64,000 nt of DNA, taken from a virus. The position numbers and the translations under genes are program-made. How positions within the stretch are numbered: the first letter of the stretch is position 1; each line of letters starts with the position of its first letter. A model generated the notes under the pieces. It saw only the letters and a program-made list of their open reading frames with translations. It was not told where the DNA came from and did no database searches. The stretch is taken from the IMG/VR virus record IMGVR_UViG_3300020171_000001, positions 32,001 through 96,000 of that record, one strand, 5' to 3'. Positions 2,964 to 20,039 of this stretch are shown in pieces.

Positions 2964-3287
2964 ATGACCAAACTGCGTACGATAGTTGACCTGGAGGACT
3001 TGCTCCCGCCCGACGGCATGGCGCATACCACGCGCTTTCGCCCCCTGGAGACGAGCTGGGTCAATTTAGATTATGCCCTGGACGCGCTCCGGCGTCGGGG
3101 CTTGCCATGGATCGCGAATGGACTTCTGCGTAACGGAACCTACTACGTCGCCGTCGATGTCGATGGATACACAGGCATCGCCCGGGCGTTCGGGGTCGCA
3201 CTGAAGAAGGCAGAACAAGCATGGAACGAAGCGAACAAGCCCAAGCCCAAGCCCAAGCCCAAGCCCAAGCCCAAGCCCGCCCGATGA
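2964..3287 (+). CDS. hypothetical protein with (KP)n tail
   Basis: AAGGAG SD; (AAGCCC)n repeat. Confidence 0.6.
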   Translation: MTKLRTIVDLEDLLPPDGMAHTTRFRPLETSWVNLDYALDALRRRGLPWIANGLLRNGTYYVAVDVDGYTGIARAFGVALKKAEQAWNEANKPKPKPKPKPKPKPAR

Positions 3288-3874
3288 CCAAGCCCATCGC
3301 GCTGGTGAAGCAAACCAACCCCGACGAGGTCGTGGCCTATGCCTGCGGCTCGTGCGGCACCGTGGTCGGAACCGCCAAGTCCCACGGGAGCAACGCACAG
3401 GGCATGGCCGAGCGATGCTGCGCACCGCCTGCCTGCCAGCAATGCGGAGCGGTGCACGACCGGAAGCACCGGCTGTTCTGTGGCCCCTGCGAGGTGGCTC
3501 GCGAGGCGGCTCGCGAGGCCAGGCGGTTTGCGGCTGCCGAGCACATCCCGGCGTCGGACTACGACGGTCCCGTGTACTGGGACGGGACGGGGAACGATGG
3601 CTACTCCCCGTCTGTCGCGGACCTGCTCGATTGGTTTGCCGACGAGGAGACCGAGCCGCCGGCCTACGTCTGGGCATGCTCGGTGCGCCACCCGAGCCTG
3701 GACGCAGATGATCTCCTGGAACACGCGCTGGACGACCACCACGAGGACTGCGACCTGGACGCTGTTGACGAGTTGCGGGCGTTCGTCGCGCGCTGGAACG
3801 CGCAGCAAACCGACGAGACATGGGACGTCGACGTTACGTGTGCTGTGCTACTGACCAACGAGGTGGAATCATGA
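3284..3874 (+). CDS. hypothetical protein, Zn-finger N-terminus and acidic C-terminus
   Basis: ATGA overlap; three CxxC pairs. Confidence 0.65.
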   Translation: MTKPIALVKQTNPDEVVAYACGSCGTVVGTAKSHGSNAQGMAERCCAPPACQQCGAVHDRKHRLFCGPCEVAREAAREARRFAAAEHIPASDYDGPVYWDGTGNDGYSPSVADLLDWFADEETEPPAYVWACSVRHPSLDADDLLEHALDDHHEDCDLDAVDELRAFVARWNAQQTDETWDVDVTCAVLLTNEVES

Positions 3875-4024
3875 CTCGAGCTACTTGCCCCGGCCCCAGC
3901 CTGGGGCAGCTGGAACGGTTCCCAGAGATGCTCCACGTCGCGGCCCTGGAGGTTAAAGCCGCTTCCAAGAAAGTTGGATAAACTTGGACAAAGGGGGCTT
4001 GACAGGGCTAACAGGAGGACTAAA

Positions 4025-4249
4025 ATGAGGGTGGTTTCAGTGAGCAGGACAGAGTTCAAAACGGAAGATGGCCAAGTTTACCCAATCGATCCGCCACTTA
4101 CGGAGGACATGACGCCGGATGAGTTCCAAGAGCACTATGACCTCGCTGCTGCCCTTGTCGGAAGCCTCCAGGCTTCTGGGGACAACGCCCCGAACACTGA
4201 GGCGCTGGGACGCAGCCGGAAAGATCAAGACGGTAAGGAGCCCCGGTAA
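4025..4249 (+). CDS. small acidic ORF overlapping tnpA 5' end
   Basis: Strong AGGAGG SD before ATG 4025; overlaps tnpA in another frame. Confidence 0.45.
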   Translation: MRVVSVSRTEFKTEDGQVYPIDPPLTEDMTPDEFQEHYDLAAALVGSLQASGDNAPNTEALGRSRKDQDGKEPR

Positions 4250-4763
4250 TCACCGGCTCATCCCCATGTCCGAGATTGAACGACTCCGAGGCGAAGACGC
4301 CATTCGTCGGACAGTTACGCTGACATACTGTCGCTGTTCCACACATAAACAAAAAGAGAACCTGGACAGACAGGTAGGCAGGCTCCTGGAGCACTGCCTC
4401 CAAGAAGGCTGGAAGCCAGAATTGTTCAAGGACATCGGCAGCGGCCTAAATGACAACCGCAAGCAGTTCAAGAAGCTCCTCAAGCGGATACCTGGCGGGG
4501 ACGTGAAACGGGTGTTGGTGGAGTACAAGGACAGATTATGTCACTATGGATTCACGGTGTTCCAGGGTTACTGCGAGGGCTTGGGTGTTGACGTGGTGGT
4601 GCTAGAGGAGCAAGAGCATAAGGAATTTGAGCAAGAGTTTGCCCAGGACGTAGTGGCTCTAATCGCGTCCTTCTCAGCCAGACTGTATGGGAGAAGGGGC
4701 GGTAGGAAAAAAGTGTTAGTTGCTGCCACGGAGAAGCCAACGGGAGATGGAAACGATGGCTGA
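4119..4763 (+). CDS. tnpA: IS607 transposase (MerR-type HTH plus serine recombinase)
   Basis: EASRLLG..PRTLRRWD HTH; YCRCST catalytic motif; DIGSGLN; YKDRL; SFSARLYGRR. Confidence 0.92.
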   Translation: MSSKSTMTSLLPLSEASRLLGTTPRTLRRWDAAGKIKTVRSPGNHRLIPMSEIERLRGEDAIRRTVTLTYCRCSTHKQKENLDRQVGRLLEHCLQEGWKPELFKDIGSGLNDNRKQFKKLLKRIPGGDVKRVLVEYKDRLCHYGFTVFQGYCEGLGVDVVVLEEQEHKEFEQEFAQDVVALIASFSARLYGRRGGRKKVLVAATEKPTGDGNDG

Positions 4764-4980
4764 ATCCTGGGAGCGCGGACATCGCACCTTTTGGGATGGC
4801 AAAGTGTGGCGCTATAAGGACACGGGAGAGGCGGCGACGGGAAAACGCTCGTGTGCTCGTTGCGGGAAACCCCCTACAGGGGATGGGCACGATGCCTGCC
4901 TTGGCTGTGTTCCTGGGGCCACATCAGCCTGTTGTGGGCATGGCGTCCACAATCCTATTTGCTGCGTAATGAGTAGTTGA
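4756..4980 (+). CDS. Cys-rich phage-type hypothetical protein (cargo between tnpA and tnpB)
   Basis: CARC...GHDACLG..PG...ACCGHG motif; overlaps tnpA stop and abuts tnpB start. Confidence 0.6.
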   Translation: MAESWERGHRTFWDGKVWRYKDTGEAATGKRSCARCGKPPTGDGHDACLGCVPGATSACCGHGVHNPICCVMSS

Positions 4981-6180
4981 GTGATCCTCTCCCACAAAAT
5001 ACGGCTGATCCCATCTCCGGCCCAGGAAGACTACTTCCGACGGGCCTGTGGTACAGCCAGGTTCACGTACAACTGGGCACTGGCTGCTTGGAAGAAAGCC
5101 TACGAGGCGGGAGAGAAACCCAATGGGCGAAGCCTAAAGATCAATTTCAACGCTCTTCGGAAAGTTGAACTGCCCTGGACTTACGACGTTCACCGAGACT
5201 GTACTGCGGGTGCCTTTGACAATCTCCAAGGTGCCTTCCAACACTTCTTCAGGCGAGTGAAAGCGGGCGAGAAACCGGGCTATCCAAAGTTCAAGAAAAA
5301 GGGATTGGCGAAGGATAGCTTCAGCATCGCCAATGACAAGTTCAGCCTCGATGGCAAGAATATCCGGGTGCCCAAGTTGGGCTGGGTCAAGATGCGGGAG
5401 ACTCTTCGCTTCACTGGGAAGATCATGTCCGCCGTGGTGAGCCGAACGGCGGGCCAGTGGTTTGCGGCTATCGCTGTAGATACTGAAGTCATCTCCCAGC
5501 CCCCGAAAGCCAAAGGGGCTATTGGAGTTGATCTTGGGATCTCAGCATTGGCCACGATGTCCGATGGAAGGAAGGTTCAACATTCTAGCAAGTGGGGGAA
5601 TCTGGAGAAACAAGTCAGGCGACTTCAGAAATCCGTGAGCCGGAAACAAAAAGGATCTGCAAGTAGACGCAAAGCCGTAGGCAAGCTGGCTCGGAAGCAC
5701 CTGGAGTTAGCCAACCTCCGAAATGATCTGCTGCACAAAACCACAACAGACTTGGTGCAGGGGCACCAAGGGATTGTAATTGAAGATCTCAATGTCCGAG
5801 GAATGGTCAAGAACCATTGTCTGGCACGTTCCATCTCCCGACAGGGGTGGGCTGAGTTTCGTCGCCAGCTTGAGTACAAGTCCTCGATGCACGGCAGGGA
5901 TTTGGTAATTGCGGACAGGTATTACCCTTCGACGAAGACATGCTCGGGTTGCGGGGCGATCAAGCCTGTTGCTCTATCCGAACGTGTTTACAAGTGCCCT
6001 GTCTGTGGGTTGGCCATAGACAGGGATTTCAACGCAGCAATAAATCTTTCAAGACTACGGGCGGGTAGCTCGGATGTTAAGCCGGTGGAGATGGAAGCTC
6101 TGGCCAGTGGTAGTATCGCTGGTGAAACTGCTGTCTATGAAGCCGGAACAGGGAGTGGACCGCTTTGTCCAACTTCTTGA
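4981..6180 (+). CDS. tnpB: RNA-guided endonuclease TnpB
   Basis: N-terminal KIRLIP..Q..F...G.ARF.YN; RuvC D (GVDLG), E (IEDL), D (DRDFNAA); CSGC/CPVC Zn finger. Confidence 0.93.
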   Translation: MILSHKIRLIPSPAQEDYFRRACGTARFTYNWALAAWKKAYEAGEKPNGRSLKINFNALRKVELPWTYDVHRDCTAGAFDNLQGAFQHFFRRVKAGEKPGYPKFKKKGLAKDSFSIANDKFSLDGKNIRVPKLGWVKMRETLRFTGKIMSAVVSRTAGQWFAAIAVDTEVISQPPKAKGAIGVDLGISALATMSDGRKVQHSSKWGNLEKQVRRLQKSVSRKQKGSASRRKAVGKLARKHLELANLRNDLLHKTTTDLVQGHQGIVIEDLNVRGMVKNHCLARSISRQGWAEFRRQLEYKSSMHGRDLVIADRYYPSTKTCSGCGAIKPVALSERVYKCPVCGLAIDRDFNAAINLSRLRAGSSDVKPVEMEALASGSIAGETAVYEAGTGSGPLCPTS

Positions 6181-6444
6181 AACCAGCTGTCAGAGATGCT
6201 GGAAGCTCTTCGACATGGGGATCCGCAGAGCAAAAGCATTCCGGGTTTCACACACGTCGCTGAGGAAGCGGCTGACCTCATGATCCGGCTGCTGGACTTC
6301 TGCGGCGCTCGGGGTATTCCGTTGGGTGCAGCTGTTCTGGCCAAGCATGCCTTCAACCAGACCCGCCCGCGCAAGCACGGCAAAGCATTTTAATCGCGGG
6401 CCTGCGGGCCCGCGGGTCCAGCGCAGCCCTTTGAAAAAAAATAG

Positions 6445-6473
6445 TTGACGTGCCCTGCCCCGTCGGGCACACT
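6445..6473 (+). promoter_or_regulatory. sigma70-like promoter of candidate ncRNA
   Basis: A-tract UP element, TTGACG-17bp-CACACT. Confidence 0.5.
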
Positions 6474-6479
6474 TCTGGG

Positions 6480-6906
6480 GTTCATCAGTGGCGGGTGCGG
6501 GTTGGGGCGGCCGGTAGCCCGGGCGCCTTCCGATGTGGGCAAGCGCGGAGCAGCTTCGGCTGCCCTGAGGCTCCCAGTGAGGTCCGCACCGGTCCCAGTA
6601 AACCCTTCGGGGGCTACTGAGACGCCATGCAGCGATGCTTCAGGACAAAGCTCACCTGATATGGCATCGAGGCTAAGGCGCCAGGGACGCCAAGCGCTTG
6701 CGCTTGACACCGAGCTTTTTGCTGGTGGAACGCGAACGGGGGCGCAGCGGTTTGGAGGGCACGGGTGCCAGGCGAGTTCTGCAAGCCCGGCTCTCCGCCA
6801 AAAGCCCTGGTTAGCCTTCGGGCGCCGGGGACAAAGCCCGCTGTAGCCCAGTAGACTCAAGGGAAGCCATGTTGGTCCGCGAGGCCCTTCAGGGCTTTTT
6901 CTTTTT
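6480..6906 (+). ncRNA. candidate large structured ncRNA (~420 nt), family not recognised
   Basis: Three C(UUCG)G hairpins, multiple nested stems, 5'/3' closing helix, own promoter and terminator, no convincing ORF. Confidence 0.65.
6883..6906 (+). terminator. Rho-independent terminator
   Basis: GGCCC-TTCA-GGGCT hairpin followed by TTTTCTTTTT. Confidence 0.7.
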
Positions 6907-6920
6907 CTGTGCTTGTCCAG

Positions 6921-6970
6921 CGTCTGTCGCTGTTTGCCGCTGTTTGCCGCTGTTTGTCGCTGTTTGTCGC
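6921..6970. repeat. 5 x 10-bp tandem repeat (TGTTTGYCGC)
   Basis: Read directly; first unit degenerate; ends 7 bp before a -35 box. Confidence 0.9.
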
Positions 6971-6977
6971 TTTGCGG

Positions 6978-7006
6978 TTGACAAACCATGCCATCGTCGC
7001 TACTCT
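6978..7006 (+). promoter_or_regulatory. sigma70-like promoter
   Basis: TTGACA-17bp-TACTCT. Confidence 0.75.
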
Positions 7007-7047
7007 CTCCGAAAGCGCCAAACACCGCTGAAGATGGAGCGCATCGA

Positions 7048-7248
7048 ATGGCAACGCAACAAGTCGCATTTCGCATCCCGGAAGATATGCTCACCGAGGT
7101 AGACCAGGTCGCTGCTTGGATGGCCGCGAGCAACCCTGGGGTGCGGGTCACCCGGGCCGACGTGATTCGGTACCTCCTGGCTCGCGGGCTCAAGGCTCTG
7201 GATCGGCAGAAGCGCGGCCGCGTCCAGATACAGGAGGACCGGTCATGA
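7048..7248 (+). CDS. ribbon-helix-helix (CopG/Arc-like) regulator
   Basis: QVAFRIPEDMLTEVD...TRADVIRYLL pattern. Confidence 0.75.
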   Translation: MATQQVAFRIPEDMLTEVDQVAAWMAASNPGVRVTRADVIRYLLARGLKALDRQKRGRVQIQEDRS

Positions 7249-7652
7249 CCCGTTTGCCGCAAGCGCTGCTCTGCGTCGTCGCCGCCTTTGCCGGCGGGGT
7301 AGCGGCGCAGTGCGGTAGTGATCCCCGCAGCTTCGGATCCGATGGTCTGCCTGACGCGGGAACCGACAGTAGTTCAAAGCCCGGGGTGGGCCAGCGATAC
7401 GACTACACGTTCGCGCTTCAGCCAAACATACCCAAAGAAGTCTGCCCCCCAGCAGGCGCGCCACCGGATAAGTTCCCCGTAATACAGCAGTGGGTTTGGC
7501 TGCGCTCCGGAATCGGCCCTGCCTACCTCAATCGTTGGCTCTTGCTGGATTGGGCGTCCGTTCGACAATCCACGAACGCCGGGTGTCTCACCGTGTCGGT
7601 TTCCAACAACTCAACAGATGCTCATGATGTTCACCTGGTCTTGATCTACTGA
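7245..7652 (+). CDS. secreted or lipoprotein-like hypothetical protein
   Basis: ATGA overlap, AGGAGG SD, hydrophobic N-terminus ending AAQC. Confidence 0.55.
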   Translation: MTRLPQALLCVVAAFAGGVAAQCGSDPRSFGSDGLPDAGTDSSSKPGVGQRYDYTFALQPNIPKEVCPPAGAPPDKFPVIQQWVWLRSGIGPAYLNRWLLLDWASVRQSTNAGCLTVSVSNNSTDAHDVHLVLIY

Positions 7653-7727
7653 CGGCAGAGCCATGACGACCGATCAATGCCAGTACGCAGTGTGCATCCA
7701 TGAGACGCAGAAGTCCGGAGGCCGCTA

Positions 7728-8252
7728 ATGCGCGAAAGACGCTACCAGGTTTTGTACCACTCCGGGATCGACCAGTACGTCGGGGACAAGGGCTTCGGCG
7801 TGCACGTGGCAGACGTGGACCGTGCGCAGCCATGGCCCCTGGGGCACTTCCAGGGAGACCGCTACGAGGTCCACCGGATGCCTTCCTGGGCTCTGCAAGT
7901 CTGGCCGACGCTGGGTGGAGGCTTGCCAGGGACGCAGCCCTCATGCATTCGGACGGTCTATGACGTCCGGGAGCACACCTTTGCCTCCTGGACGGACCCG
8001 GCGCTGTGGCGGGTTGCTCGCCATGCCGCTTGGGCCTTCTGTGAACGCTGCCAAAGGCTCCGAGACGGTGGCGCAGATGTGGACTATCCCACGCAGGTCC
8101 TGGACTTGCCAGATGCGGAGCGACCGCAGCTCGCCCGGGCCCTCGTGAGCCTGGAGAGCGCGCTTCGGGGCCCCGGGGAGGTCCACGACGATGTACGGAG
8201 GGCCACCGCGGATATCCTCGGCGAGCTACTGATGCTAATCGAGAGGAGCTGA
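7728..8252 (+). CDS. hypothetical protein
   Basis: GGAGG SD, coding-like composition. Confidence 0.55.
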   Translation: MRERRYQVLYHSGIDQYVGDKGFGVHVADVDRAQPWPLGHFQGDRYEVHRMPSWALQVWPTLGGGLPGTQPSCIRTVYDVREHTFASWTDPALWRVARHAAWAFCERCQRLRDGGADVDYPTQVLDLPDAERPQLARALVSLESALRGPGEVHDDVRRATADILGELLMLIERS

Positions 8253-8255
8253 ACG

Positions 8256-8579
8256 ATGTCAAAGGCACGCGCGCAGGCTGTTGCACGAGACGCCCAACGT
8301 CTTGCAGTCCAACTCGGGATCCGAGATCCGTCGGAGCAGATCCGGTGGGCCAAGAAGCTTCTTGACTGGTGCAAGCTCCAGCCCGGCGCCGACGTGGCTG
8401 GGTTGAAAGCCGCGGAGCACGTCCTCGGGTTACATCTCGAGGGCGGGGAGGGCCGGGCGATGAAGAAGCACATCACAAAGGACGACGGAGATTGCGTGTC
8501 CTGGTGCCCCGCTTGCGGTCCTGCCTGCAAGCACGGAGAGAACTCCAAGGAGTGCACCAAGTGCGAGACGGAACGCTGA
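8256..8579 (+). CDS. hypothetical protein, Cys-rich C-terminus
   Basis: GAGGAG SD. Confidence 0.5.
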   Translation: MSKARAQAVARDAQRLAVQLGIRDPSEQIRWAKKLLDWCKLQPGADVAGLKAAEHVLGLHLEGGEGRAMKKHITKDDGDCVSWCPACGPACKHGENSKECTKCETER

Positions 8580-8796
8580 TGCCCGGGAACAGCAACAGAT
8601 AAGCCGATCACAGCGGCTCAGGCTCCGCGTTGCCATGAATTCCGCAGACTGCGCAAGGCCCTGGCAGGCGCAGGAGGGGGCATCGGGTCTCGCCCCAAGT
8701 CACAGCAAAAGGACGACCGTGGCTCCCGCTGAATAAGGAGAGCATCGGGCAACCTCGGCAATGCCAGATTCGGGGCCTTGTGATACCTTGGGGTGC

Positions 8797-10614
8797 ATGA
8801 GAACGAGCGTAAAGCCCATCATCGGAATCGACCTGGGGACCACGCACACGGTCATGGCCTGCGTGGACGAGCTGGAAGGGCCCGCGCGGGTCGTGGCGAT
8901 TCCGCAGGTGACGGGGCCCGGAGTCGTGGAGTCCCGGGACGTACTGCCCTCCTTCATCTACCTGGCGGCTGGACCCGAGCTGCCGCCCGGGGCCCTGCGC
9001 CTGCCGTGGTCGGAAAGCGGTCGTGACTACGTCGTGGGTGAACTGGCCCGGTCGCAGGGCTCTGCGGTGCCAACCCGTCTGGTAGCGTCAGCCAAGTCGT
9101 GGCTGTGCCACCCAGGTGTGGACCGCACGGCGCCTGTGCTGCCGTGGCGGGCCCCGGCAGACGTGGCAGGCATCTCTCCCTTGGACGCCACCACGCGCAT
9201 CCTGGAGCACCTCCGAAGCGCCTGGGGCCATGCCCACGGGCACGGGCACGTCGCTGCGGGGGCCGCGCTGGGTGCGTCGGGTTCGCTCTTGAGCGATCTG
9301 GACGTGTTCTTGACTGTGCCGGCGTCCTTCGACGCGGTGGCTCGAGAGATGACCATGACCGCGGCCCACCGGGCAGGTCTGGAACGGGTCACCCTGCTGG
9401 AAGAGCCCCAGGCCGCTTTCTATGCTTGGCTCGCCGCAACCGGGGAGACATGGCGGGACCTACTGAAGGTCGGGGACGTGGCGCTGGTGTGCGACGTGGG
9501 TGGGGGAACCACTGACTTCTCCCTCATCGAAGTGGCGAGCCGGGGCGGGGACCTCGCTCTGGAACGCGTGGCGGTAGGCGACCACCTGATGCTGGGCGGC
9601 GACAACATGGACCTAGCCCTGGCGCACGTCCTGGCGGCTCGCCTCGGGGGCGGCTTGGACGCTTGGCAAGCCCGTTCCCTGTGGATCGTGGCTCGGGATG
9701 CCAAGGAGCAGCTCCTGGCAGATCCAGAGCGTCTGTCGGCGCCGGTGACCGTGCTGGGACGCGGATCCCGTGTCGTGGGCAAAGCAGTGACCACTGAGCT
9801 CACGCAGGCCGATGTGCAGCAGGTGATCCTGGACGGTTTCTTCCCACGGTGCACTGCAGATGCCCGGCCGGTCGTGGGCCGGCGCTCCGGTATTCAGGAG
9901 GCGGGGCTGCCCTACGCCTCGGACCCGGCGGTTACGCGGCACCTCGCCCGGTTCGTGGGGGACCATGGCAAGATGCCTACAGCCATCCTGTTCAACGGGG
10001 GCGTGATGAAGGCCGCAGCGCTTCGCCAACGGATCGCTGAGGTGCTGGAAAGCTGGATGCCCGACTCAGGGACTCTCCGAGTCCTCGAGAGCGTGAGCCT
10101 GGACTTGGCCGTGGCGCAGGGCGCTGCAGTCTACGGCCGGGTGCGCCAGAGCGGCAAGGGCGTTCGGATTCGGGGCGGGACGGCTCGGTCGTACTACCTC
10201 GGCATCGAGGGCGCCATGCCAGCGATCCCAGGCCTCCCGCCGCCGCTCAAGGCCCTGTGCGTGGTGCCCTTCGGCATGGAGGAAGGCACCGAGGCCGATG
10301 TGCCGGGGCCCGAGCTGGCCCTGGTGGTGGGCGAACCGGCCGAGTTCCGATTTCTGTCCTCCACGGTGCGCAAAGACGATGGACTGGGCGCTCTGTTGGA
10401 AACCTGGTCTTCGCAGGAAATCAAGGAGCTGGCACCCGTCAGGGCCGCGATGGAGGGCCCGGGCAGCGCCACGGTCCTGGTCACACTGCATGCCCGGGTC
10501 ACCGAGGTAGGCACCCTGGAGCTCGAGCTGCGCTCGCTGCAGGATGACCATGTCTGGAAGCTGGAATACTCAGTGCGGGAGCAGCAGGACACGGCTCCGC
10601 CCATTGGCTCGTAG
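8797..10614 (+). CDS. Hsp70-family protein (non-canonical, no DnaK lid)
   Basis: GIDLGTT, TVPASFD, LLEEPQAAFY, DVGGGTTDF, LGGDNMD, LFNGG ATPase motifs. Confidence 0.9.
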   Translation: MRTSVKPIIGIDLGTTHTVMACVDELEGPARVVAIPQVTGPGVVESRDVLPSFIYLAAGPELPPGALRLPWSESGRDYVVGELARSQGSAVPTRLVASAKSWLCHPGVDRTAPVLPWRAPADVAGISPLDATTRILEHLRSAWGHAHGHGHVAAGAALGASGSLLSDLDVFLTVPASFDAVAREMTMTAAHRAGLERVTLLEEPQAAFYAWLAATGETWRDLLKVGDVALVCDVGGGTTDFSLIEVASRGGDLALERVAVGDHLMLGGDNMDLALAHVLAARLGGGLDAWQARSLWIVARDAKEQLLADPERLSAPVTVLGRGSRVVGKAVTTELTQADVQQVILDGFFPRCTADARPVVGRRSGIQEAGLPYASDPAVTRHLARFVGDHGKMPTAILFNGGVMKAAALRQRIAEVLESWMPDSGTLRVLESVSLDLAVAQGAAVYGRVRQSGKGVRIRGGTARSYYLGIEGAMPAIPGLPPPLKALCVVPFGMEEGTEADVPGPELALVVGEPAEFRFLSSTVRKDDGLGALLETWSSQEIKELAPVRAAMEGPGSATVLVTLHARVTEVGTLELELRSLQDDHVWKLEYSVREQQDTAPPIGS

Positions 10615-10684
10615 CGTAGAAAGCGCTGGGAGCCACTGCCAGCTAGTATCCGGCGATCAGAGCCGGGTGTCCAGAGTAATCTGC

Positions 10685-10740
10685 TTGACGCCGAAGACCG
10701 CCGCCGGGTAGGGTTTCCCTGGCATGTCAGGCATGTCAGG
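10685..10740 (+). promoter_or_regulatory. promoter plus GCATGTCAG tandem operator
   Basis: TTGACG-18bp-TAGGGT, then GGCATGTCAGGCATGTCAGG. Confidence 0.5.
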
Positions 10741-10791
10741 CCACGGGCCACGGGCCAAATGCCTGGCGTTCAATCCAGCGAGAAAAGGGGC

Positions 10792-10844
10792 TTGACAAGG
10801 GCCTGCGGAGGATGTACAAACTCCTGTATGTCATGCATGTCATG
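10792..10844 (+). promoter_or_regulatory. promoter plus CATGTCA operator
   Basis: TTGACA-17bp-TACAAA, then TATGTCATGCATGTCATG. Confidence 0.5.
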
Positions 10845-11384
10845 GAACAGCAAAAAGCAAAGCGGAGGTCGACGATGAGCCGGGGTCAGAAGCGCGCATT
10901 TCAACGCCGCGTTGCAGAGCATGCCAAGCGCTTGCTCAAGAGCACCGTCTCTGGGGAGTTTCGGGGGGCCCTGGACGGCGCCGACCAGAGGTATCTCAGC
11001 CAGTGCATGTTCGCGGATGCCGAGGGCGGCCTGGGCATTCTGCTCACTCGGGACTGCGTGGGGGGCCAGCGGTTCTTGCATCTGTGCATCTCTCCTGTTC
11101 CTGGGGAGACCACGGTGATCGACAGGGACGCCGAGCGCGCGTGGCTGATGGCCGTGTTCGGAGACAACCTGGATCGCGTCTGGGGCGAACATGCTCGAAG
11201 CACCCCGGGGCAGCACCGAGGCATGAGGCACTGGCGTCTCCCCTGCGATGAAACCGCGGACTGGAATGCGACGGAGTTGGACGCTGCAGTGGCTACTGAG
11301 TTCCGGAGGCGCAGGGCTCGCCCGGCCCTGGAAATTCTCGCAGTGGTCGACCAGGCCCGTGATGGCAGAGCAAGTCCATCATAG
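10812..11384 (+). CDS. hypothetical protein (start uncertain)
   Basis: Long ORF with coding-like composition. Confidence 0.55.
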   Translation: MYKLLYVMHVMEQQKAKRRSTMSRGQKRAFQRRVAEHAKRLLKSTVSGEFRGALDGADQRYLSQCMFADAEGGLGILLTRDCVGGQRFLHLCISPVPGETTVIDRDAERAWLMAVFGDNLDRVWGEHARSTPGQHRGMRHWRLPCDETADWNATELDAAVATEFRRRRARPALEILAVVDQARDGRASPS

Positions 11385-11420
11385 TTCTTGTTTCTCGTGG
11401 GCCCGGAGTCCGCGAGGTCC

Positions 11421-11457
11421 CACGGAGTTCCACGGAGTTCCACGGAGTTCCACGGAG
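11421..11457. repeat. 3.7 x 10-bp tandem repeat (CACGGAGTTC)
   Basis: Read directly; last copy forms the GGAGG SD of the next gene. Confidence 0.9.
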
Positions 11458-11464
11458 GCGGGCA

Positions 11465-12139
11465 ATGCGAGTACCTGACGATAGCGTGCGCCGATCCACG
11501 TTTGCGTTCCTCCGGGAGCATGCATTCGCTGGTCTACTGCAGGCAGTACAGCGCATACGAGACGATGTCCCTGGGGCTCTCCAGAACCCCGGGGTGGACC
11601 TGGACCTGATCGATTTCCATCGGTGCTACGTGGAGCGACGGCAGGCCGTGATTGACGCGCTGAACCGAGACCTAGCGGCTGAAGACGCTGTGTTTGCGCT
11701 GCTGCTCCACGAGTGGCTCGTCCCGCAGTCTCGGGGGGACACCGTGGACGCAGTGGGTCTTGACGCGCGTCTAGCTCTGCTAGCCTGCGAAGGCCTACGT
11801 GGGTCGAAGCAGACGAGCTCCGTAGTTGCGCCCGAGGCGGCACCGATGACAGCGAGATCTGCGGCAAAGCCCGCGGGCTCGCCTGGGGCCCGGTCCCAGG
11901 CCACGGCGGACTCGGGTGCATACTCGGAGGGCGACTGGGAAGAGGCTCTGGGCGCCATTGAGGAGGCCCTCGGCCTTCTGGACGATCTGCCTGAGCGCGC
12001 TGCCGGGTTCCGCGTGGGTGTGGAGGAGAAGTTGACTAGCATCGCAGAGTGGATCGTGGACAACGAGCATGTGACCGGGGCCCAATGCGATGCCATCAGC
12101 AACATGCTGAGGGGGGTCAACAAGTGGCTGCACCGATAG
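11465..12139 (+). CDS. hypothetical protein
   Basis: GGAGG SD; coding-like. Confidence 0.55.
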   Translation: MRVPDDSVRRSTFAFLREHAFAGLLQAVQRIRDDVPGALQNPGVDLDLIDFHRCYVERRQAVIDALNRDLAAEDAVFALLLHEWLVPQSRGDTVDAVGLDARLALLACEGLRGSKQTSSVVAPEAAPMTARSAAKPAGSPGARSQATADSGAYSEGDWEEALGAIEEALGLLDDLPERAAGFRVGVEEKLTSIAEWIVDNEHVTGAQCDAISNMLRGVNKWLHR

Positions 12140-12747
12140 CAACAGAAGCGCAAAGACTGCTGCAAGACCTGAAAGAGCGCGCACTTGCAGCCTTCTGCGA
12201 GCACCGAGTCACGCAGGTTGGTCCGGGGCACTGGGTCTTCCGGCGGCTTGGCACAGGCGCATTCTACGTGGAAGTTGTGGCCCTGACAGGATGCGGGCAC
12301 CTGCTTGTCGCCGGCGACATCGACACGTGCGCATTCAGTACCTTCTCGCGGCCCCGGGAGGCAACTGACGAGGATCTGGCGTTGGCCATGCTCCGGTGGA
12401 TCGGCGGGCAGACTTCTCCGTCAGGATACGTGGAGGAGAAGGCCCGGATCGGCCTGACAGACCGTGGCCAGCTCGCCCAGGTCTACGAGTCGGAAGTGGC
12501 CCGCGAGGAGATCCAGGGGCTTCTACGCGAGGAAGACGACGAGGACCGCCGCGGGGTCTTCGCCGAGGCTCTGCACTACACCGATGAGCGCCAGCCGCTC
12601 CTGACGTTTCTGTACGAAGCGACGGGGGACGCTGAGCTGGTTTCTGACCTTGGCATGGTCACCAGCCCGCGCGTGATTTGGGCATGGGCGGCGGTGCGCC
12701 AGCTCATGCTGGCACTGGTAGAGGTTGAGGCTGAGGCTGGGACGTAG
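12124..12747 (+). CDS. hypothetical phage protein
   Basis: GTG overlapping previous gene; coding-like. Confidence 0.55.
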   Translation: MAAPIATEAQRLLQDLKERALAAFCEHRVTQVGPGHWVFRRLGTGAFYVEVVALTGCGHLLVAGDIDTCAFSTFSRPREATDEDLALAMLRWIGGQTSPSGYVEEKARIGLTDRGQLAQVYESEVAREEIQGLLREEDDEDRRGVFAEALHYTDERQPLLTFLYEATGDAELVSDLGMVTSPRVIWAWAAVRQLMLALVEVEAEAGT

Positions 12748-12801
12748 AATCTAGCAGAGGGCTTATTCAGCCCTTGACAAGGCCCTTTTGCAGGAGATAT
12801 C

Positions 12802-13029
12802 ATGGCATCCAGGAGCAAGAAGAAAGGCGGGGAAGAGAAGACCGGTGGGACTGCACCCAAGGCTCGAAGTCATCGGGTGCCCAACGTAGTACGGAACACG
12901 AAGGTGAACCTGCTCGACCGGCACATCCAATGGCTGGAGGGCCAAGCGCAGGAACGCGGCTGCTCGCGGTCGCAGGTCCTGCGGGACCTGATCGACAGGC
13001 TAATGAACTGCGCGTGGGACACGCCATGA
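12802..13029 (+). CDS. ribbon-helix-helix (CopG-like) regulator
   Basis: TKVNL...IQWL...A...GCSRSQVLRDLID pattern; AGGAG SD. Confidence 0.7.
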   Translation: MASRSKKKGGEEKTGGTAPKARSHRVPNVVRNTKVNLLDRHIQWLEGQAQERGCSRSQVLRDLIDRLMNCAWDTP

Positions 13030-13283
13030 CGCTCATCGGCAATTGCATCCTGCGGTACCTGGCTGGCGGCAAGCCGCGGGACCTCAAGGCCATTGCGAAT
13101 ACCTGCCGCTGCCGCGCGGAGGACGCTGCGGTAGAACTGACCGGCTTTCAAGCGCGTGAACTGGTGTCGCGTGTCGGACGCGGGTACGTCTTGACCCCTA
13201 TGGGGCTGGCCGTCGCCAATCGCTTGAAGCCCTGCGTGGCAACTGAAACGCGGGGAGACAATGGGGAGCTCGTGCCATGTTGA
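13026..13283 (+). CDS. winged-helix protein
   Basis: ILRYL...IA...L..LV.R....Y.LT..G wHTH pattern. Confidence 0.5.
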   Translation: MTLIGNCILRYLAGGKPRDLKAIANTCRCRAEDAAVELTGFQARELVSRVGRGYVLTPMGLAVANRLKPCVATETRGDNGELVPC

Positions 13284-13930
13284 CCAAATCTAAATCGGTC
13301 GAATCAGCCAAATCAGTGGGCTCAGTGGGCCCGACGATCCGGGATTGCCACGACCTGATTCACCAACGAGACGTGTTGCGCCAGGGCAAACTGTCCATTG
13401 CTGCGTTCGCTACGGGGTACTCGGATGCTACGGCGCCCACGGATTCAGACACGACGGTCTTCGGGTGCTGGGTCCGGGTAGGCAGCACACGGGCTATCTT
13501 GGCTGCGCCGTGCAAGTCAAATAGCCGTTGGACGGCTGTAACGGACGCAGAGCTCTGCGGGGTCTACGGCGCTGTCTACATGGCCATGTCCTTGCTCGAG
13601 GAGTACCCGGGCTTGCCCAGGGCGCAGAACTTGGTGGTCGAAACCGGCTCGCTGGCGGTCCGCAACTGGTTCCAGGGTCGCGGTCTGAAGGGTACTGACT
13701 CCTACGTGCTCGAGCGCGTGTACTGGAGTTTGCGCTGGCCCCTTGAAGCCCATGGGATCAAGGTCGTGGTCAAGTGGGCCAAAGGTCATCAGTCTCCCGG
13801 TACAGGCACCGAGGCCTATCTCAGCAACCGGGTAGACGTACTGGCCAAGGAAGTCTGGCGCACGGGCCAAGAGCGCCGGTGGGTTGGCCACGGCGCGAGG
13901 CCAGGACCCGCTCGATCCGCGAGTGCATGA
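13277..13930 (+). CDS. RNase H-like protein (degenerate active site)
   Basis: YSDA, DAEL, ETGS (expected TDS), KWAKGH, NRVDVLAK. Confidence 0.65.
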   Translation: MLTKSKSVESAKSVGSVGPTIRDCHDLIHQRDVLRQGKLSIAAFATGYSDATAPTDSDTTVFGCWVRVGSTRAILAAPCKSNSRWTAVTDAELCGVYGAVYMAMSLLEEYPGLPRAQNLVVETGSLAVRNWFQGRGLKGTDSYVLERVYWSLRWPLEAHGIKVVVKWAKGHQSPGTGTEAYLSNRVDVLAKEVWRTGQERRWVGHGARPGPARSASA

Positions 13931-14478
13931 TGGCGCAACGGAGCTTCCAGATCCCCGAGCTTGTTACCCGCGTGAGACGAGCAGGCTTGAGCCCGAACCA
14001 GGTCCTGGCCTTTGGGTCGAACCACGCGGGGTTTCACGGAGCTGGAATAGCCGGACTGGCGTTTCGCGGTACGCCAGAGAACACGTGGCGTTGCGACTCT
14101 GCGTTTCTGCGCGCCATGCGGGCTCAGCCTGGGTCTCCGGACCGCGTTGGTTTGCGAGCCGTATACGGTGTGGGCAGAGGACCGCAGCAGGGCCGCGAAG
14201 GGCTGGGCTATGCCATCGAGACCGTGCGCCGCCCTGGGGCTCGTTGCTCCGTGCCCCTGAGTGAGATTCGCGAGCAAGTCATGGGCCTCGTGCGGTGGGC
14301 TGCTGAGCATGCAGATCTCGAGGTCTTTTGCTGTGTCTCCGGTGCCGGGTACAACGGGTGGAGCACATGCGAAGTACGCAACGGAGTCTACTCCGGTGTT
14401 GATTTTCCGGAGAACATTTGCATCCCGGCAGACATGGCGATGACGCCAACAGGTCTCACAGAGAGCGAATGCTGCTAG
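13927..14478 (+). CDS. macrodomain-like phage protein (FGSN..G.HG.G family)
   Basis: VLAFGSNHAGFHGAGIA, A.YG.G.G.QG...YAI.T, GAGYNG. Confidence 0.65.
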   Translation: MMAQRSFQIPELVTRVRRAGLSPNQVLAFGSNHAGFHGAGIAGLAFRGTPENTWRCDSAFLRAMRAQPGSPDRVGLRAVYGVGRGPQQGREGLGYAIETVRRPGARCSVPLSEIREQVMGLVRWAAEHADLEVFCCVSGAGYNGWSTCEVRNGVYSGVDFPENICIPADMAMTPTGLTESECC

Positions 14479-14552
14479 CGGCTTTGCTGGCTGCCAAGGG
14501 TGATAGGGCCGACGTTCAACTGCCCGGCGTCCACGGGCAAAGGGTGTGAAAA

Positions 14553-15242
14553 ATGTCTCGTGCTCTGACTGGTATGCTCTTGCTGTGCAGTTCCCTGCTG
14601 TGCTCCTGCGACCGCGGGGCATCTGCAGCGGTGCCCGATGTGGTCCGCGCGCACCGTTTTGAACTGGTTGATAACGCAGGGAAGGTGCACGCAAAACTAG
14701 AAATGGGGCCAGGCGGAGAGGGTGCGGTGCTCGCGCTGTTTGATGCAGCGGGGGGGAGGCGCGCGGGGGTGGAAGTGCACGCCAACGGTGCTTCTCAGCT
14801 CACGCTGTACGATGCTGCTGGGAAGGCGCGGGGCGGACTGGGCGTTGACGCTAACGGTACGCCAGGGCTCACACTGCAAGACGCGGCAGGAAAGGCCCAC
14901 GTGGCTATAGGCGTCACTGAACGCGGCACCCCGGGGCTCTCGCTGTACGACACAACGGGGTCAATGCGCGCGTTCGTCCTCCCGACAGGGCTTGTCCTAA
15001 ACGATGCAGCGGGGAAGGCCCTCGCGGGGGTAGTCCTGCGCGAAAACGGCACTCCAGGGTTCATGCTCTACGACGAAGCAGGAACAGCCCGCGCGGGTCT
15101 GGCCGGGGCCGCAGATGGCAGCGGAGGGCTCGTGCTGTTGGACGCGAGGGGAACGACTCGCGCGTTTTTAAGTGTGACGGATGGCGCTTCGGGGCTCACG
15201 TTGTGGGATGCAACGGGCAAGGTAACACGCTCGTTACCTTGA
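14553..15242 (+). CDS. lipoprotein with LxDxAGKxR beta-hairpin repeats
   Basis: Signal peptide with Cys; about 9 repeats of ~22 aa. Confidence 0.65.
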   Translation: MSRALTGMLLLCSSLLCSCDRGASAAVPDVVRAHRFELVDNAGKVHAKLEMGPGGEGAVLALFDAAGGRRAGVEVHANGASQLTLYDAAGKARGGLGVDANGTPGLTLQDAAGKAHVAIGVTERGTPGLSLYDTTGSMRAFVLPTGLVLNDAAGKALAGVVLRENGTPGFMLYDEAGTARAGLAGAADGSGGLVLLDARGTTRAFLSVTDGASGLTLWDATGKVTRSLP

Positions 15243-15279
15243 CGCAGGAATGCACGATGGGCAACTCGGACACAGGCAA

Positions 15280-15804
15280 ATGAGCAGGCCTGCGGGGCAC
15301 TGCCGGTTCATTGCTGCGGTCTGCACTGTCTGCGGCCGCGAGCACTTGGCGAAGTCGAAGTCCAAACTCCGTTGCGATGCGTGCACAGCAGTACGTGAGC
15401 AGGGCCGCATTCGGCCGGGGGCCAGGCGACGGGCAAGTTCCCGACGCGCGGACATTATCAAGGGTATCGAAGCAGGCACCACGCGCGCTGGTGCCCTCGC
15501 GGCACAATTGCGCAGGACGCCGCAGTCAATTGGACTAATGCTGCGCTTCATGGCCCTCGACGGGCTGGTAACGCAGACTGAGTCTGGCGCGTGGGCGCTG
15601 GTGACAACGAAGCCGGTTCCGCGAGCAGGGCCTGTTCTACCCGCTGATAGCGCTCCGATGCGGGGCCGAGCAGGGGCTGTGCAGCGGCGCAACGAGGTCT
15701 GCCCAGCGTTCTCTGCATGCGGTGCATATGCTTGCCGTGTCAGGTGGCCTGCGTGGCACTGCGCTGATTGCCCACGTGCGGGCGAGGGGGCAGGGCAGCG
15801 ATGA
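15280..15804 (+). CDS. Zn-finger plus HTH protein with C-terminal Cys/Trp motif
   Basis: CTVC..CDAC, HTH-like segment, C.....C..YA....W..W.C.DCP. Confidence 0.5.
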   Translation: MSRPAGHCRFIAAVCTVCGREHLAKSKSKLRCDACTAVREQGRIRPGARRRASSRRADIIKGIEAGTTRAGALAAQLRRTPQSIGLMLRFMALDGLVTQTESGAWALVTTKPVPRAGPVLPADSAPMRGRAGAVQRRNEVCPAFSACGAYACRVRWPAWHCADCPRAGEGAGQR

Positions 15805-16409
15805 CCGCCATTTACGCGACGCTGAGGAGGTCGTGATGAGCGCATGTGAGAGATGCTGGGCCGAAGCCGGGGGCAACGCAGGCGAGTACCGGCGGCTGTT
15901 GTCGCTTCGCTCCTGCACACCTGAGCAGCAGGCGGGGCCAGACGCGGGGCTGTGCCTGCATTGTGGCCGGAGAACTCGGCACCAACACACCGGCGAGTGC
16001 ATGGTCCATGGCTGCGACGAGCGCCGGATGATGCTCAACGAGGAGCCAAGACGATGACCACCAAGCGCAAGCCGACCAAAGATTTCCCGCCCATCGGGTG
16101 GCGTGGCCTGAAACGTCACGGCAAGGGCGCGTGGCGAGAGACAAGACGGCATGATGACACCTCCTGGAGCGTGGGGCATGGGTGGCCGTGCGGTGGAATG
16201 CCATCTGAGGTCGCACCTCTCCCGGGCGAGACATGGCCAGGCGAGGATGCGCCCGAGCAAGAGATCGAGCGGCTGCGCAATGCCATGACGGCTGCGCTTG
16301 CCATCTTCGAGGACCGGGAGCGGTTCATGGTGATGGGGCCGCTCGGGACACTGCAAGCGACGCGGATTTTACGGGCGGCGCTGGAGACGGCCCGACACGG
16401 GAGCGACCG

Positions 16410-16592
16410 ATGACGACGAAAAACCTTGAGACGATCTTGGCCCGAACGCTACTGGCGTTGCAAGGATACCGGCGCGGCGATCATGGCGACTGGCATGACC
16501 CGGCGCATGCGGCGGCCGTGCGCGCGAGCCTGGACGCCACGAGGGCGCTAGCCGCGTGGCGGCAGACCCCGAAAGTGGACAAAAGGCGATGA
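16410..16592 (+). CDS. small hypothetical protein (paralog of 18078-18284)
   Basis: ATGA overlaps at both ends; HAAAVRASLD..RALA.WRQT. Confidence 0.55.
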   Translation: MTTKNLETILARTLLALQGYRRGDHGDWHDPAHAAAVRASLDATRALAAWRQTPKVDKRR

Positions 16593-16834
16593 CCGCCGTG
16601 TATGCGATAGACCCCGGCCCGGTGCAGAGCGCCTATGTGCTGATGGTCGAGCGCGAGATCGACGACCACGGCATTGTGGAGAACGTCGAATTGCTGGAGC
16701 GCATCTGGCGCCGCGATGCGCCGCAGACGTTGGCCATCGAGATGATCGCCAGCTACGGGATGCCCGTCGGTCGTGAGGTGTTCGAGACGTGCACGTTTTT
16801 CATTTCAACAGTTGGCTTTGCGGCGCCCATGTGA
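16589..16834 (+). pseudogene. truncated RuvC-like Holliday junction resolvase (5' half)
   Basis: AIDPG..SAYV, AIEMIASYGMPVGREVFETC, then abrupt switch to low-GC sequence. Confidence 0.8.
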
Positions 16835-16947
16835 ATATGATGTTTTTGCGTGTGGCTATACCTGTAACCCGTTATGTCTCCTCTCCGGCGGTGACCCTCC
16901 TGGGCCACACGCAACCGCCGGTTGAGGGGGCATCATCGGCGGATGTC

Positions 16948-17484
16948 ATGGAAACAAAAGTATGTTCAAGATGTAGGACGCCAAAAGCAATATCATTTTT
17001 TAGTAAGCACTCCCGTGGAACATTTGGCGTACAAGCATACTGCAAAGAATGTGTACACAGCCACTATCTTGAACACAAAGAGGATGTTTTTGCGCGTGCG
17101 CGCAGGCGCAGATCAGCCGAGTCCGGGAGAGAGCAAGAACGCAAGTGGCAGCGTGATAGAAGAACAAACTTCCCTATTAAGCGAATGATCCAAGAGGCAT
17201 CTGTACGTGCGCGAAAACGTGGATTTGATTTTAATTTAACTGAAGATGATTTAACAATGCCTGAATTTTGTCCAGTTCTTGGAATAAGGCTTGAGCGCAA
17301 GGGTTTTCCAAGAGCTGATTCCAGTCCATCTATTGATCGGATTGATTCACACAGGGGGTACATAAAGGGGAATGTTATTATTATAAGTTGGCGGGCGAAT
17401 AGAATTAAAAGCGATGCAACGCTTGAAGAATTGGAACTTATCGCGGCGTTCTATAGGAAAATTCATGAGAATTCTTGCAGTTGA
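16948..17484 (+). CDS. HNH-like (His-Me finger) homing endonuclease
   Basis: N-terminal CSRC..CKEC; CPVLG, SPSIDRIDS..GY.KGNV.IIS.RAN..K; low GC. Confidence 0.8.
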   Translation: METKVCSRCRTPKAISFFSKHSRGTFGVQAYCKECVHSHYLEHKEDVFARARRRRSAESGREQERKWQRDRRTNFPIKRMIQEASVRARKRGFDFNLTEDDLTMPEFCPVLGIRLERKGFPRADSSPSIDRIDSHRGYIKGNVIIISWRANRIKSDATLEELELIAAFYRKIHENSCS

Positions 17485-17971
17485 TCCAGGCCCGCAGCGT
17501 TCTGCGTGGGTCGTAATTAACGAAGATGGATCCAGTCATCCTCTGGTTGTAAGTTTTGCACTGGAGCCAAACGATGATTTGCTAGCCCGTATTCGAGAGC
17601 AGCGTTTTTGCTCACCACCGCTTCCTATGCACTGCGCTATGGAGATGGTGGCCAGTTACGGGATGCCCGTTGGGCGCGAGGTGTTTGATACGGTGTGGTG
17701 GGCTGGTCGATTTGCGCAGTGCTTCGGAGCGGACTCAGTTGATCGGATTTACCGATTACAAGTCAAGTTGGCGATATGCAAAGACAGCAGGGCGAAAGAT
17801 AGCAACGTCCGCCAGGCGATCATTGACCGCTACCCGGCGACGGGCGGCGGCCGGGTGCCGCAGATCGGGACCAAGGCGAAGCCCGGACCGCTGTACGGGG
17901 TGCGGGCGGACGAGTGGGCCGCGATAGGCGTGGCCCTCACTTGGCTTGGACGGGCATCCAAGGAGAACTAA
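17465..17971 (+). CDS. RuvC-like Holliday junction resolvase (complete)
   Basis: ILAVDPG, EMVASYGMPVGREVF, VK...C....AKD.N.RQA, D.WAA.GVA. Confidence 0.85.
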   Translation: MRILAVDPGPQRSAWVVINEDGSSHPLVVSFALEPNDDLLARIREQRFCSPPLPMHCAMEMVASYGMPVGREVFDTVWWAGRFAQCFGADSVDRIYRLQVKLAICKDSRAKDSNVRQAIIDRYPATGGGRVPQIGTKAKPGPLYGVRADEWAAIGVALTWLGRASKEN

Positions 17972-18077
17972 AACGATGACCGCACCGTTTGCGCTCACGC
18001 CCCCGCTCTACGGCGGGGCACGGGACAACGATACTCCGCGTCCGAGATGAGCACGGGGCACAGAGCGAGGTGAAGCC

Positions 18078-18284
18078 ATGAGAAAGACGAAGACATCGAA
18101 CAAGGCCCTGTTCAACGAGGCGCGGCGGTTCCTGTCTGCTCTCGCGGACTACGATAACGCGGCAGATGTGAACCACTTCCATTGCCCCGAGCACGCGGCG
18201 GCGATGCGCGCATCGATGGACTTGTACCACGCACTGGCCCAGTGGCGACAGACGTCGCCCTACGACAAGCTGGAGAAAAAGTGA
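18078..18284 (+). CDS. small hypothetical protein (paralog of 16410-16592)
   Basis: GAGGTG SD; HAAAMRASMD..HALA.WRQT. Confidence 0.55.
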   Translation: MRKTKTSNKALFNEARRFLSALADYDNAADVNHFHCPEHAAAMRASMDLYHALAQWRQTSPYDKLEKK

Positions 18285-18562
18285 TGATGAAGCTACTCGA
18301 CTCGGTATTGCGTATTTCCGACCAAAGACCGCCGTTGTGGCTCGTGCAGGATGCCGAGCAGTTGGCACGACGGCATAACCGCCAAATTGACGAGCCGTGG
18401 CGGCACAGCTTCCGCCCGCTCCCCCGAACGCCGGGCGTGTGCGCCATCTGCTACCAGGTGGAACGGCGGCACCGGCTGCCGTTGTGGCGCCGGCTCGTTG
18501 CGTGGCTGGTGGGGGACGGAGCCATGCGCGAGACCCTGAGCAAGCGCGACAAGGATCTGTGA
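18284..18562 (+). CDS. small hypothetical protein (paralog of 19812-20039)
   Basis: RPPL.LV.DAE.LA...PWRH...PG.C..C.....HR.PLWRR.VAWLVG. Confidence 0.55.
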   Translation: MMKLLDSVLRISDQRPPLWLVQDAEQLARRHNRQIDEPWRHSFRPLPRTPGVCAICYQVERRHRLPLWRRLVAWLVGDGAMRETLSKRDKDL

Positions 18563-19811: not shown

Positions 19812-20039
19812 ATGAGACGGAATAACACCGTGACCCGCATCACCGGCTGGCGCCCGCCGCTGCGCCTGGTGCGCGACGCGGAGCGGCTGGCCATGGACGC
19901 CTCGACGCCGTGGCGGCACGTCTTCCGGCACCACCAGCAGCTCCCCGGGATCTGCGACCTGTGCCTGCAGCCGCTGCACCGCCACCGGGCGCCGCTGTGG
20001 CGGCGGATCGTCGCGTGGCTGGTGGGGGTGGAGCCATGA
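19812..20039 (+). CDS. small hypothetical protein (paralog of 18284-18562)
   Basis: Same motif string as 18284-18562. Confidence 0.55.
   Translation: MRRNNTVTRITGWRPPLRLVRDAERLAMDASTPWRHVFRHHQQLPGICDLCLQPLHRHRAPLWRRIVAWLVGVEP

Follow-up and report, generated by a model that had tools for sequence, protein, structure and literature searches.

A candidate gene for a structured non-coding RNA of about 425 nt in an uncultured groundwater phage

The stretch of DNA analysed here (the window) comprises 64,000 nucleotides, bases 32,001-96,000 of the 157,287-bp phage record IMGVR_UViG_3300020171_000001 of IMG/VR, which carries direct terminal repeats. Its subject is a short region near the left end of the window that is predicted to be transcribed rightward into a GC-rich structured non-coding RNA (ncRNA). 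The coordinates of the region, its parts and its neighbours are collected in Table 1, and all positions are those of the window unless the genome is named. The region sits within a block of rightward, promoter-headed cassettes, which are proposed to be early or accessory genes. It is preceded by the 3' fragment of a MazG-like pyrophosphatase gene, interrupted by an IS607 element, and followed by a tandem repeat array and the gene of a ribbon-helix-helix (RHH) repressor. The surroundings are full of open reading frames (ORFs) of the ORFan kind, and those adjoining the RNA have no relatives. An independent assembly, the 16.7-kb Logan contig SRR6976411_88467, is 100% identical to positions 3249-19974; according to a preprint listing (10.1101/701565) the run SRR6976411 comes from groundwater of Olkiluoto Island, which gives the habitat of the phage. 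The phage itself is an uncultured groundwater phage and a database singleton; the best relative of its capsid protein, in a search among 1.84 billion representatives, is 48% identical.

Table 1. Coordinates (window numbering) of the candidate RNA, its predicted structural elements and neighbouring features. MFE, minimum free energy.
Feature	Position	Strand	Remark
Predicted non-coding transcript, about 425 nt	6480-6906	+	5' end predicted from the -10, 3' end is the terminator U-tail
A8 tract, UP-element-like	6434-6441	+	Directly upstream of the -35; read from the sequence
Promoter-like site: TTGACG (6445-6450), 17-nt spacer, CACACT (6468-6473)	6445-6473	+	
5' hairpin domain	6491-6544	+	Helices 6495-6505/6530-6540 and 6506-6514/6519-6527; pair probabilities 0.86-0.91; z -1.9 folded alone
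Long closing helix	6545-6569 with 6856-6880	+	High-probability element, MFE architecture
cUUCGg tetraloops	6554-6559, 6605-6610, 6816-6821	+	Each closes a complementary stem
Central multi-branch domain	6570-6690	+	Domain z -2.3, hairpin z -3.5
cUUCGg-capped hairpin of the central domain	6596-6619	+	Pair probability 0.98-0.99
Long hairpin of the central domain, 10-nt loop ACAAAGCUCA	6633-6669	+	Pair probability 0.98-0.99
Two short hairpins	6691-6706 and 6708-6727	+	Pair probabilities 0.70 and 0.95
3' three-way junction	6740-6849	+	Closing helix 6740-6750/6838-6849, hairpins 6754-6796 and 6805-6830 (cUUCGg-capped); probabilities 0.79-0.99; z -2.8 alone
Intrinsic terminator: GC stem, UUCA loop, U-rich tail	6881-6906 (stem-loop 6881-6898 and U-tail)	+ only	Terminator scan
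IS607 tnpA (MerR-HTH serine recombinase)	4119-4763		
IS607 tnpB (OrfB_IS605 and Cas12f1-like TNB domains)	4981-6180		
Tandem 10-nt repeat CGCTGTTTGC, 4.4 copies	6928-6971	+	Tandem Repeats Finder; just upstream of the RHH-gene promoter
RHH-gene promoter TTGACA-17-TACTCT	6978-7006	+	Abutted by the CGCTGTTTGC array

That the stretch is non-coding can be stated with good confidence. It does hold a 133-codon open frame on the + strand (6445-6846), with a 61-aa ATG-initiated part from 6661, as well as a 290-aa reverse ORF. The GC content at codon positions 1/2/3 is flat in both, namely 0.67/0.69/0.63 in the 133-aa ORF and 0.61/0.66/0.62 in the reverse one, as against about 0.72/0.48/0.75 in real genes of this region. 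Neither ORF matches Pfam or PHROG, a search of 5.8 billion protein clusters gave no homologue of the 133-aa ORF, and the gene caller of the independent Logan assembly left 6394-6868 empty. The forward frame starts inside the promoter, no Shine-Dalgarno sequence stands ahead of any start, and the translation is rich in Gly, Ala, Arg, Ser and Pro, as random high-GC sequence would give. A small protein encoded by this frame or by its ATG-initiated part is therefore very improbable.

The A-tract and the hexamers TTGACG and CACACT at a spacing of 17 nt are read in the sequence where the preliminary description, a model's account of this DNA made from its letters, had placed them. The -35 and the spacing agree with those of the phage's own clear promoters, all of which have the form TTGAC(A/G)-17-TAnnnT. 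The site at 6445 is the only TTGAC[AG] site of the first 13 kb to have an A8 tract ahead of it and a palindrome in its spacer. This inverted repeat, GTGCCC-N9-GGGCAC (6450-6470), takes up the spacer and has one other copy in the genome, at position 93194; it may be an operator or repressor binding site. At the other end, the claim of an own terminator is borne out by the terminator scan, which calls a stem-loop with a U-tail on the + strand only. The second call of the scan, 6702-6715, lies inside the predicted RNA.

The folding statistics were calculated for the + strand of 6480-6880, with 150 dinucleotide shuffles and native 401-nt windows of the same phage as controls. The MFE is -194.6 kcal/mol (z = -1.92, 4 of the 150 shuffles being as good), and its z-score ranges from -1.6 to -1.9 over the runs. 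More pronounced is the ensemble diversity, which amounts to 40 versus 101±31 in the shuffles, with a single shuffle of the 150 lower, and lies within the lowest 1.6% of 245 native windows. After regression of the MFE on GC content the stretch takes rank 28 of 785 windows (-1.66 standard deviations, SD). The - strand folds 18 kcal/mol worse (-176.4 kcal/mol) with a diversity of 87. Since the + strand folds better and is twice as well defined, the fold signal is strand-specific, in agreement with the orientation of the terminator; the structure statistics moderately favour the + strand.

Three cUUCGg loops had been taken earlier as the sign of a selected fold. Both their number and their stems are as described. 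CTTCGG occurs in 80 copies on the + strand of the 157-kb genome, so that about 0.14 would be expected in 270 nt, where three are seen. Taken by itself, such a cluster would turn up by chance in about one window of each genome, and it is the stem context that makes chance less likely.

All the local hairpins listed earlier (6592-6623, 6633-6669, 6691-6706, 6708-6727, 6754-6796 and 6805-6830) are present in the sequence, and the predicted MFE structure arranges them into the domains of Table 1. The long-range architecture drawn from them was not confirmed, as it is not the one that the folding energies prefer; the hairpin 6550-6563 and the 5'/3' closing pairing are absent from the MFE structure or the high-probability ensemble. 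The strings GGCGCCUU (6522-6529) and AAGGCGCC (6675-6682) are indeed complementary, but their pairing is found neither in the MFE structure nor in the high-probability ensemble, and it competes with the 5' hairpin domain. In all constrained folds the hairpins 6754-6796 and 6805-6830 are kept; the closing helix of the domain 6740-6849 is lost when the 5'/3' closing pairing of the preliminary description, or a nesting resembling P4/P5 of RNase P RNA, is forced. In these models the local hairpins appear robust and the global architecture ambiguous, with alternatives within 7-12 kcal/mol.

No known RNA family was matched, which upholds the earlier statement that the RNA is an unrecognised one. Within the 64-kb window none of the 4227 families of Rfam reaches its gathering score. 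With cmscan at E<=10 over 6300-7050, nothing inside the RNA but its terminator hairpin is matched, by the terminator parts of small RNA models; the remaining matches are one of 9.6 bits to a eukaryotic long non-coding RNA model (6378-6673) and a weak one in the downstream repeat array. The covariance models of ROOL, GOLLD, OLE, HEARO and raiA give no match, and ARAGORN finds no tRNA or tmRNA gene in the window, in line with the absence of tRNA and tmRNA hallmarks noted before. Several other identities were rejected. A retron ncRNA was dismissed, there being no RVT_1 (reverse transcriptase) match anywhere in the phage. The RNA is also not the omegaRNA of the TnpB of the IS607 element, because its start lies some 290 nt past the element, within phage DNA of 66% GC. 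Readings as tmRNA, 6S RNA, Csr sponge or small protein were likewise weighed and discarded.

The resemblance to RNase P RNA deserves a separate account. The strings GGUAGCCCGGGC (6514-6525) and ACAAAGCCCGCUGUA (6831-6845) are similar to CR-I and CR-V, and a P4-like helix whose 5' strand is bulged can be drawn from them (3-4 bp, the bulge, 5 bp and then a P5-like helix), as if the RNA were a divergent or degenerate relative of RNase P RNA. The candidate shares with type A RNase P RNA (RF00010) a size class near 400 nt and a GC-rich fold of several helices. Five type-A RNAs taken from genomes of candidate host phyla were aligned with it by MAFFT, and the 3' hairpin together with GACAAAGCCCGCUGUA (6830-6845) falls on their hairpin, J2/4 and P4 3' strand; a hairpin right before the CR-V-like string is thus common to the candidate and the aligned RNAs of Myxococcota, Planctomycetota and related groups. 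RF00010 yields no match at E<=10 over all 157 kb of the phage, whereas the five control bacterial genomes give 228-300 bits, and no RNase P family appears in the cmscan search of 6300-7050 at that threshold. The universal GGAAAGUCC, the bulged U, CR-II, CR-III and CR-IV are all missing, and no strings of the GGGUGAAA or GUAAACCCCACC type (specificity domain, CR-II/CR-III) align. Ahead of the CR-I-like string there are only about 35 nt, which hold no P3-type hairpin and no sequence for a P2/P3 stem. The string GGUAGCCCGGGC itself has UA in place of AA with one base fewer, its bulge would be CC and not U, and MAFFT does not align it to CR-I. Each motif match (11-12 of 16 positions; 11/16 for GACAAAGCCCGCUGUA against the CR-V sequence ACAGAAnnCGGCUUA) is at the chance level for a GC-rich sequence of 400 nt, and the P4/P5-like nesting costs 27.6 kcal/mol relative to the MFE. 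Descent from RNase P RNA is thus highly unlikely. No more credit is due to the suggestion that the RNA is the first of a novel class of large RNAs in phages, built around a core that is catalytic or derived from RNase P and perhaps mimicking the RNA subunit of the host enzyme; if it were true, the phage would own a tRNA-type processing ribonucleoprotein.

Homologues of the RNA were sought in several collections. A blastn search of phage and plasmid collections returned none. Exact or gapped pattern scans gave only chance matches in viral contigs (six patterns), two matches in genome contigs that were judged to be chance by Rfam and alignment, and no extended similarity in metagenome contigs (two patterns); the returned loci were re-screened by sensitive blastn, those of one metagenome scan also by covariance model. 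Among 37 related IMG/VR records, searched with blastn and with two single-sequence covariance models (6740-6849 and 6570-6690), only the phage itself was retrieved, and a 17-nt match in two of these records lies in coding DNA. In 807 bacterial genomes blastn found only chance matches of 27-52 nt. These genomes were two sets of 401, from the phyla of the Myxococcota and Acidobacteriota centre genomes, and five named ones, which also cover Planctomycetota, a "delta proteobacterium" metagenome-assembled genome (MAG) and Roseithermus. Inside the phage there are no paralogues or antisense targets of the RNA, and the duplication of GGACAAAGC within it is at chance level. The only other copy is the 100% identical Logan contig, which was found through a second cluster member of the phage's Hsp70 and comes from the same sample; being identical, it offers no variation.

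The interpretation that we prefer, with a probability of about 45%, is a stand-alone gene for a GC-rich structured ncRNA of about 425 nt that is the sole known member of a new family. It has direct support in the non-coding character of the stretch, the strand asymmetry, the well-defined fold, the terminator and the lack of a match to any known family. The use of the promoter, the transcript ends, the global architecture and the function we infer as follows. Transcription would start at about 6480 from TTGACG-17-CACACT, boosted by the A8 tract and perhaps controlled by the spacer palindrome, and would end at the intrinsic terminator. The transcript would fold into the 5' hairpin domain, the central multi-branch domain and the 3' three-way junction, three of its stems being capped by nuclease-resistant cUUCGg tetraloops. 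Such a stable RNA could accumulate during infection and act in trans on a host or phage protein as a decoy or scaffold; base-pairing and catalysis are not part of the proposed mechanism. Binding of a protein is proposed, at low confidence, because the RNA shows no complementarity in the phage and no catalytic-family signature and is built like an RNA that resists nucleases and is abundant.

A number of points weigh against this interpretation. The first concerns the start of the transcript: of the promoter claimed earlier, the -35 and the spacing stand, but the -10 does not, as CACACT has 3 of 6 consensus matches, fails the sigma-70 consensus scan and is without the T1 present in all clear promoters of the phage. 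In addition, the MazG gene has no canonical terminator, so that read-through into the RNA stretch is possible. Behind its stop codon stands a hairpin (6396-6423) that lacks a U-run and does not figure among the terminator calls, and toward the 3' end of the stretch the scan calls a terminator at 6881-6906 only. These observations, with the weak -10 and the lack of homologues and of an assignable function, could also be accounted for if the stretch were the long structured 3' untranslated end of the MazG operon and served between the cassettes as terminator, insulator or block of 3' exonucleases, with transcripts ending at 6906. A tail of about 490 nt would, however, be very long for the 3' untranslated region (UTR) of a phage whose genome is tightly packed. 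The -35, the 17-nt spacing, the A8 tract and the palindrome sit exactly where a cassette promoter would be expected, and a simple terminator role does not explain a fold so well defined. This explanation is unlikely, and it is the foremost of the alternatives.

The second group of points concerns the fold and its support. The statistics are in the top 2-4% and not extreme, and other windows of the phage score better. The z-scores of the sub-domains were computed on boundaries picked after the fold had been seen. Forcing the helix 6522-6529/6675-6682, the hairpin 6550-6563 or the 5'/3' closing pairing, all three parts of the earlier model, costs +6.6 to +12 kcal/mol relative to the MFE. No homologue that could show covariation or conservation was found in any collection searched. 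The protein-binding mechanism, taken alone, is improbable; neither the GGA motifs of the RNA nor its duplicated GGACAAAGC exceed chance expectation, and no result specifically favours any of the three roles offered in the preliminary description (ribozyme, scaffold or sponge).

Part of this evidence would also be expected if the stretch were functionless spacer DNA, a decayed gene remnant or the scar of a mobile element, with hairpins such as any sequence of 66% GC gives. The modest MFE z-score, the 27 other + strand windows with larger GC-corrected residuals, the ambiguity of the global fold, the missing conservation and the richness of the region in ORFans all agree with that. Such DNA would not be expected to show an ensemble diversity in the lowest 1-2% relative to both shuffles and native windows, together with a strong strand asymmetry; neither would it explain the three cUUCGg caps and the precise bracketing by promoter-like and terminator elements, and no trace of a decayed reading frame is seen. 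Functionless DNA comes next in likelihood after a MazG tail and is likewise unlikely. On balance the earlier observation is partly confirmed, in its listed elements and not in its long-range architecture or the -10 of its promoter, and its interpretation as a structured phage ncRNA is partly supported.

The gene that follows the candidate RNA has a bearing on its downstream limit. The CGCTGTTTGC array is the sole cluster of this repeat in the genome, one more isolated copy being located at 50834. It abuts the promoter of the RHH gene, is probably the operator for this repressor gene, and delimits the RNA cassette on the downstream side. The start of the RHH gene must be 7048 and not 6988, because the latter lies upstream of the promoter -10. 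A 135-aa ORF (7245-7652) overlaps the RHH stop codon by 4 nt, in a layout like that of a toxin-antitoxin pair; Pfam gives no match to this ORF, and a search of 5.8 billion clusters returned none but the ORF itself.

The same array could be seen as 10-bp iterons. The structured transcript, lying beside them and beside a stretch of lower GC, would then prime replication through an R-loop, in the manner of ColE1 RNA II or of the promoter-plus-unwinding-element origins of phage T4. Besides the uniqueness of the array, a fall of GC content to about 0.50 right after the terminator fits such an origin module, as does a cumulative GC-skew minimum about 3-5 kb away (genome 33-36 kb). The position of the repeats directly upstream of the RHH-gene -35 is a better fit to an RHH operator, no initiator, primase or helicase gene is adjacent, and the skew minimum also coincides with a switch of transcription direction in this phage. 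An origin module is accordingly improbable.

Upstream of the candidate RNA, the IS607 element occupies 3952-6186 (flanks 3872-3951 and 6187-6393) and has a GC content of 53-56%, compared with about 64% in the phage. The MazG 3' fragment (6196-6393) resumes in the tnpB frame. The 10-mer CAGAGATGCT is found on both sides of the element, at 3924-3933 and 6191-6200. Among 185,579 species genomes the closest relative of the TnpB is only 38% identical. Further downstream, 1.9 kb away, lies an Hsp70-like gene (8761-10614), the nearest relatives of which are 59-64% identical; those with a name are MAGs of Myxococcales, Isosphaeraceae and Planctomycetia. The closest contig to it is bacterial, with cytochrome c assembly genes and a second Hsp70, and the phage gene is a cellular acquisition. 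The relatives of the Hsp70 (at most 64% identity) and of the TnpB (at most 38%) name no host. In the same cassette array, the ORF 278-970 has weak PHROG matches to a function-unassigned family and to polynucleotide kinase (E 2e-6) and may be an RNA-repair gene.

Elsewhere in the phage, the strongest GC-corrected outlier of folding energy is found at genome 24,000-26,000, about 6-8 kb before the start of the window, and reaches -4.9 SD at a local GC of up to 0.83. Long cUUCGg-capped stems of the minus strand stand at genome 24310, 24686, 26956 and 28749, the last two outside the outlier.

Large structured RNAs of unassigned function are a rarity, and phages carry several of those known, among them ROOL and GOLLD. 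If the candidate is real, it represents a new family of a known kind, the orphan large phage ncRNA, from a deep-groundwater phage, and a target for structural and functional work. As the case rests on one sequence, it is a candidate for follow-up and not an established discovery, and a renewed search will be worthwhile as metagenome collections grow.

Among known systems, tails derived from a 3' UTR or from read-through are approached by the candidate in that it lies downstream of a gene whose hairpin has no U-tract and ends at the sole terminator called nearby on the 3' side; it differs from them in having its own -35, 17-nt spacer, A-tract and palindrome, and in a length and a well-defined fold that would be unusual in a UTR. 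The mode of action put forward here is that of 6S RNA and CsrB/RsmZ, in which an abundant structured RNA with its own promoter and terminator titrates a protein. The candidate differs from 6S RNA in having no long central bubble and no Rfam match, and it has no excess of GGA motifs (7 in a count by eye, versus about 8 expected from base composition). With regard to ROOL and GOLLD, the earlier comparison holds for the size class and not for the models, which do not match: ROOL has about 580 nt and GOLLD about 800 nt, the candidate being smaller than both. It also differs from them in having no neighbouring tRNA genes (none in the window), in being a single member and in the host lineage. What the candidate shares with ROOL and GOLLD is their general character, that of stand-alone structured phage RNAs of several hundred nucleotides, of unassigned function and not tied to an adjacent ORF.

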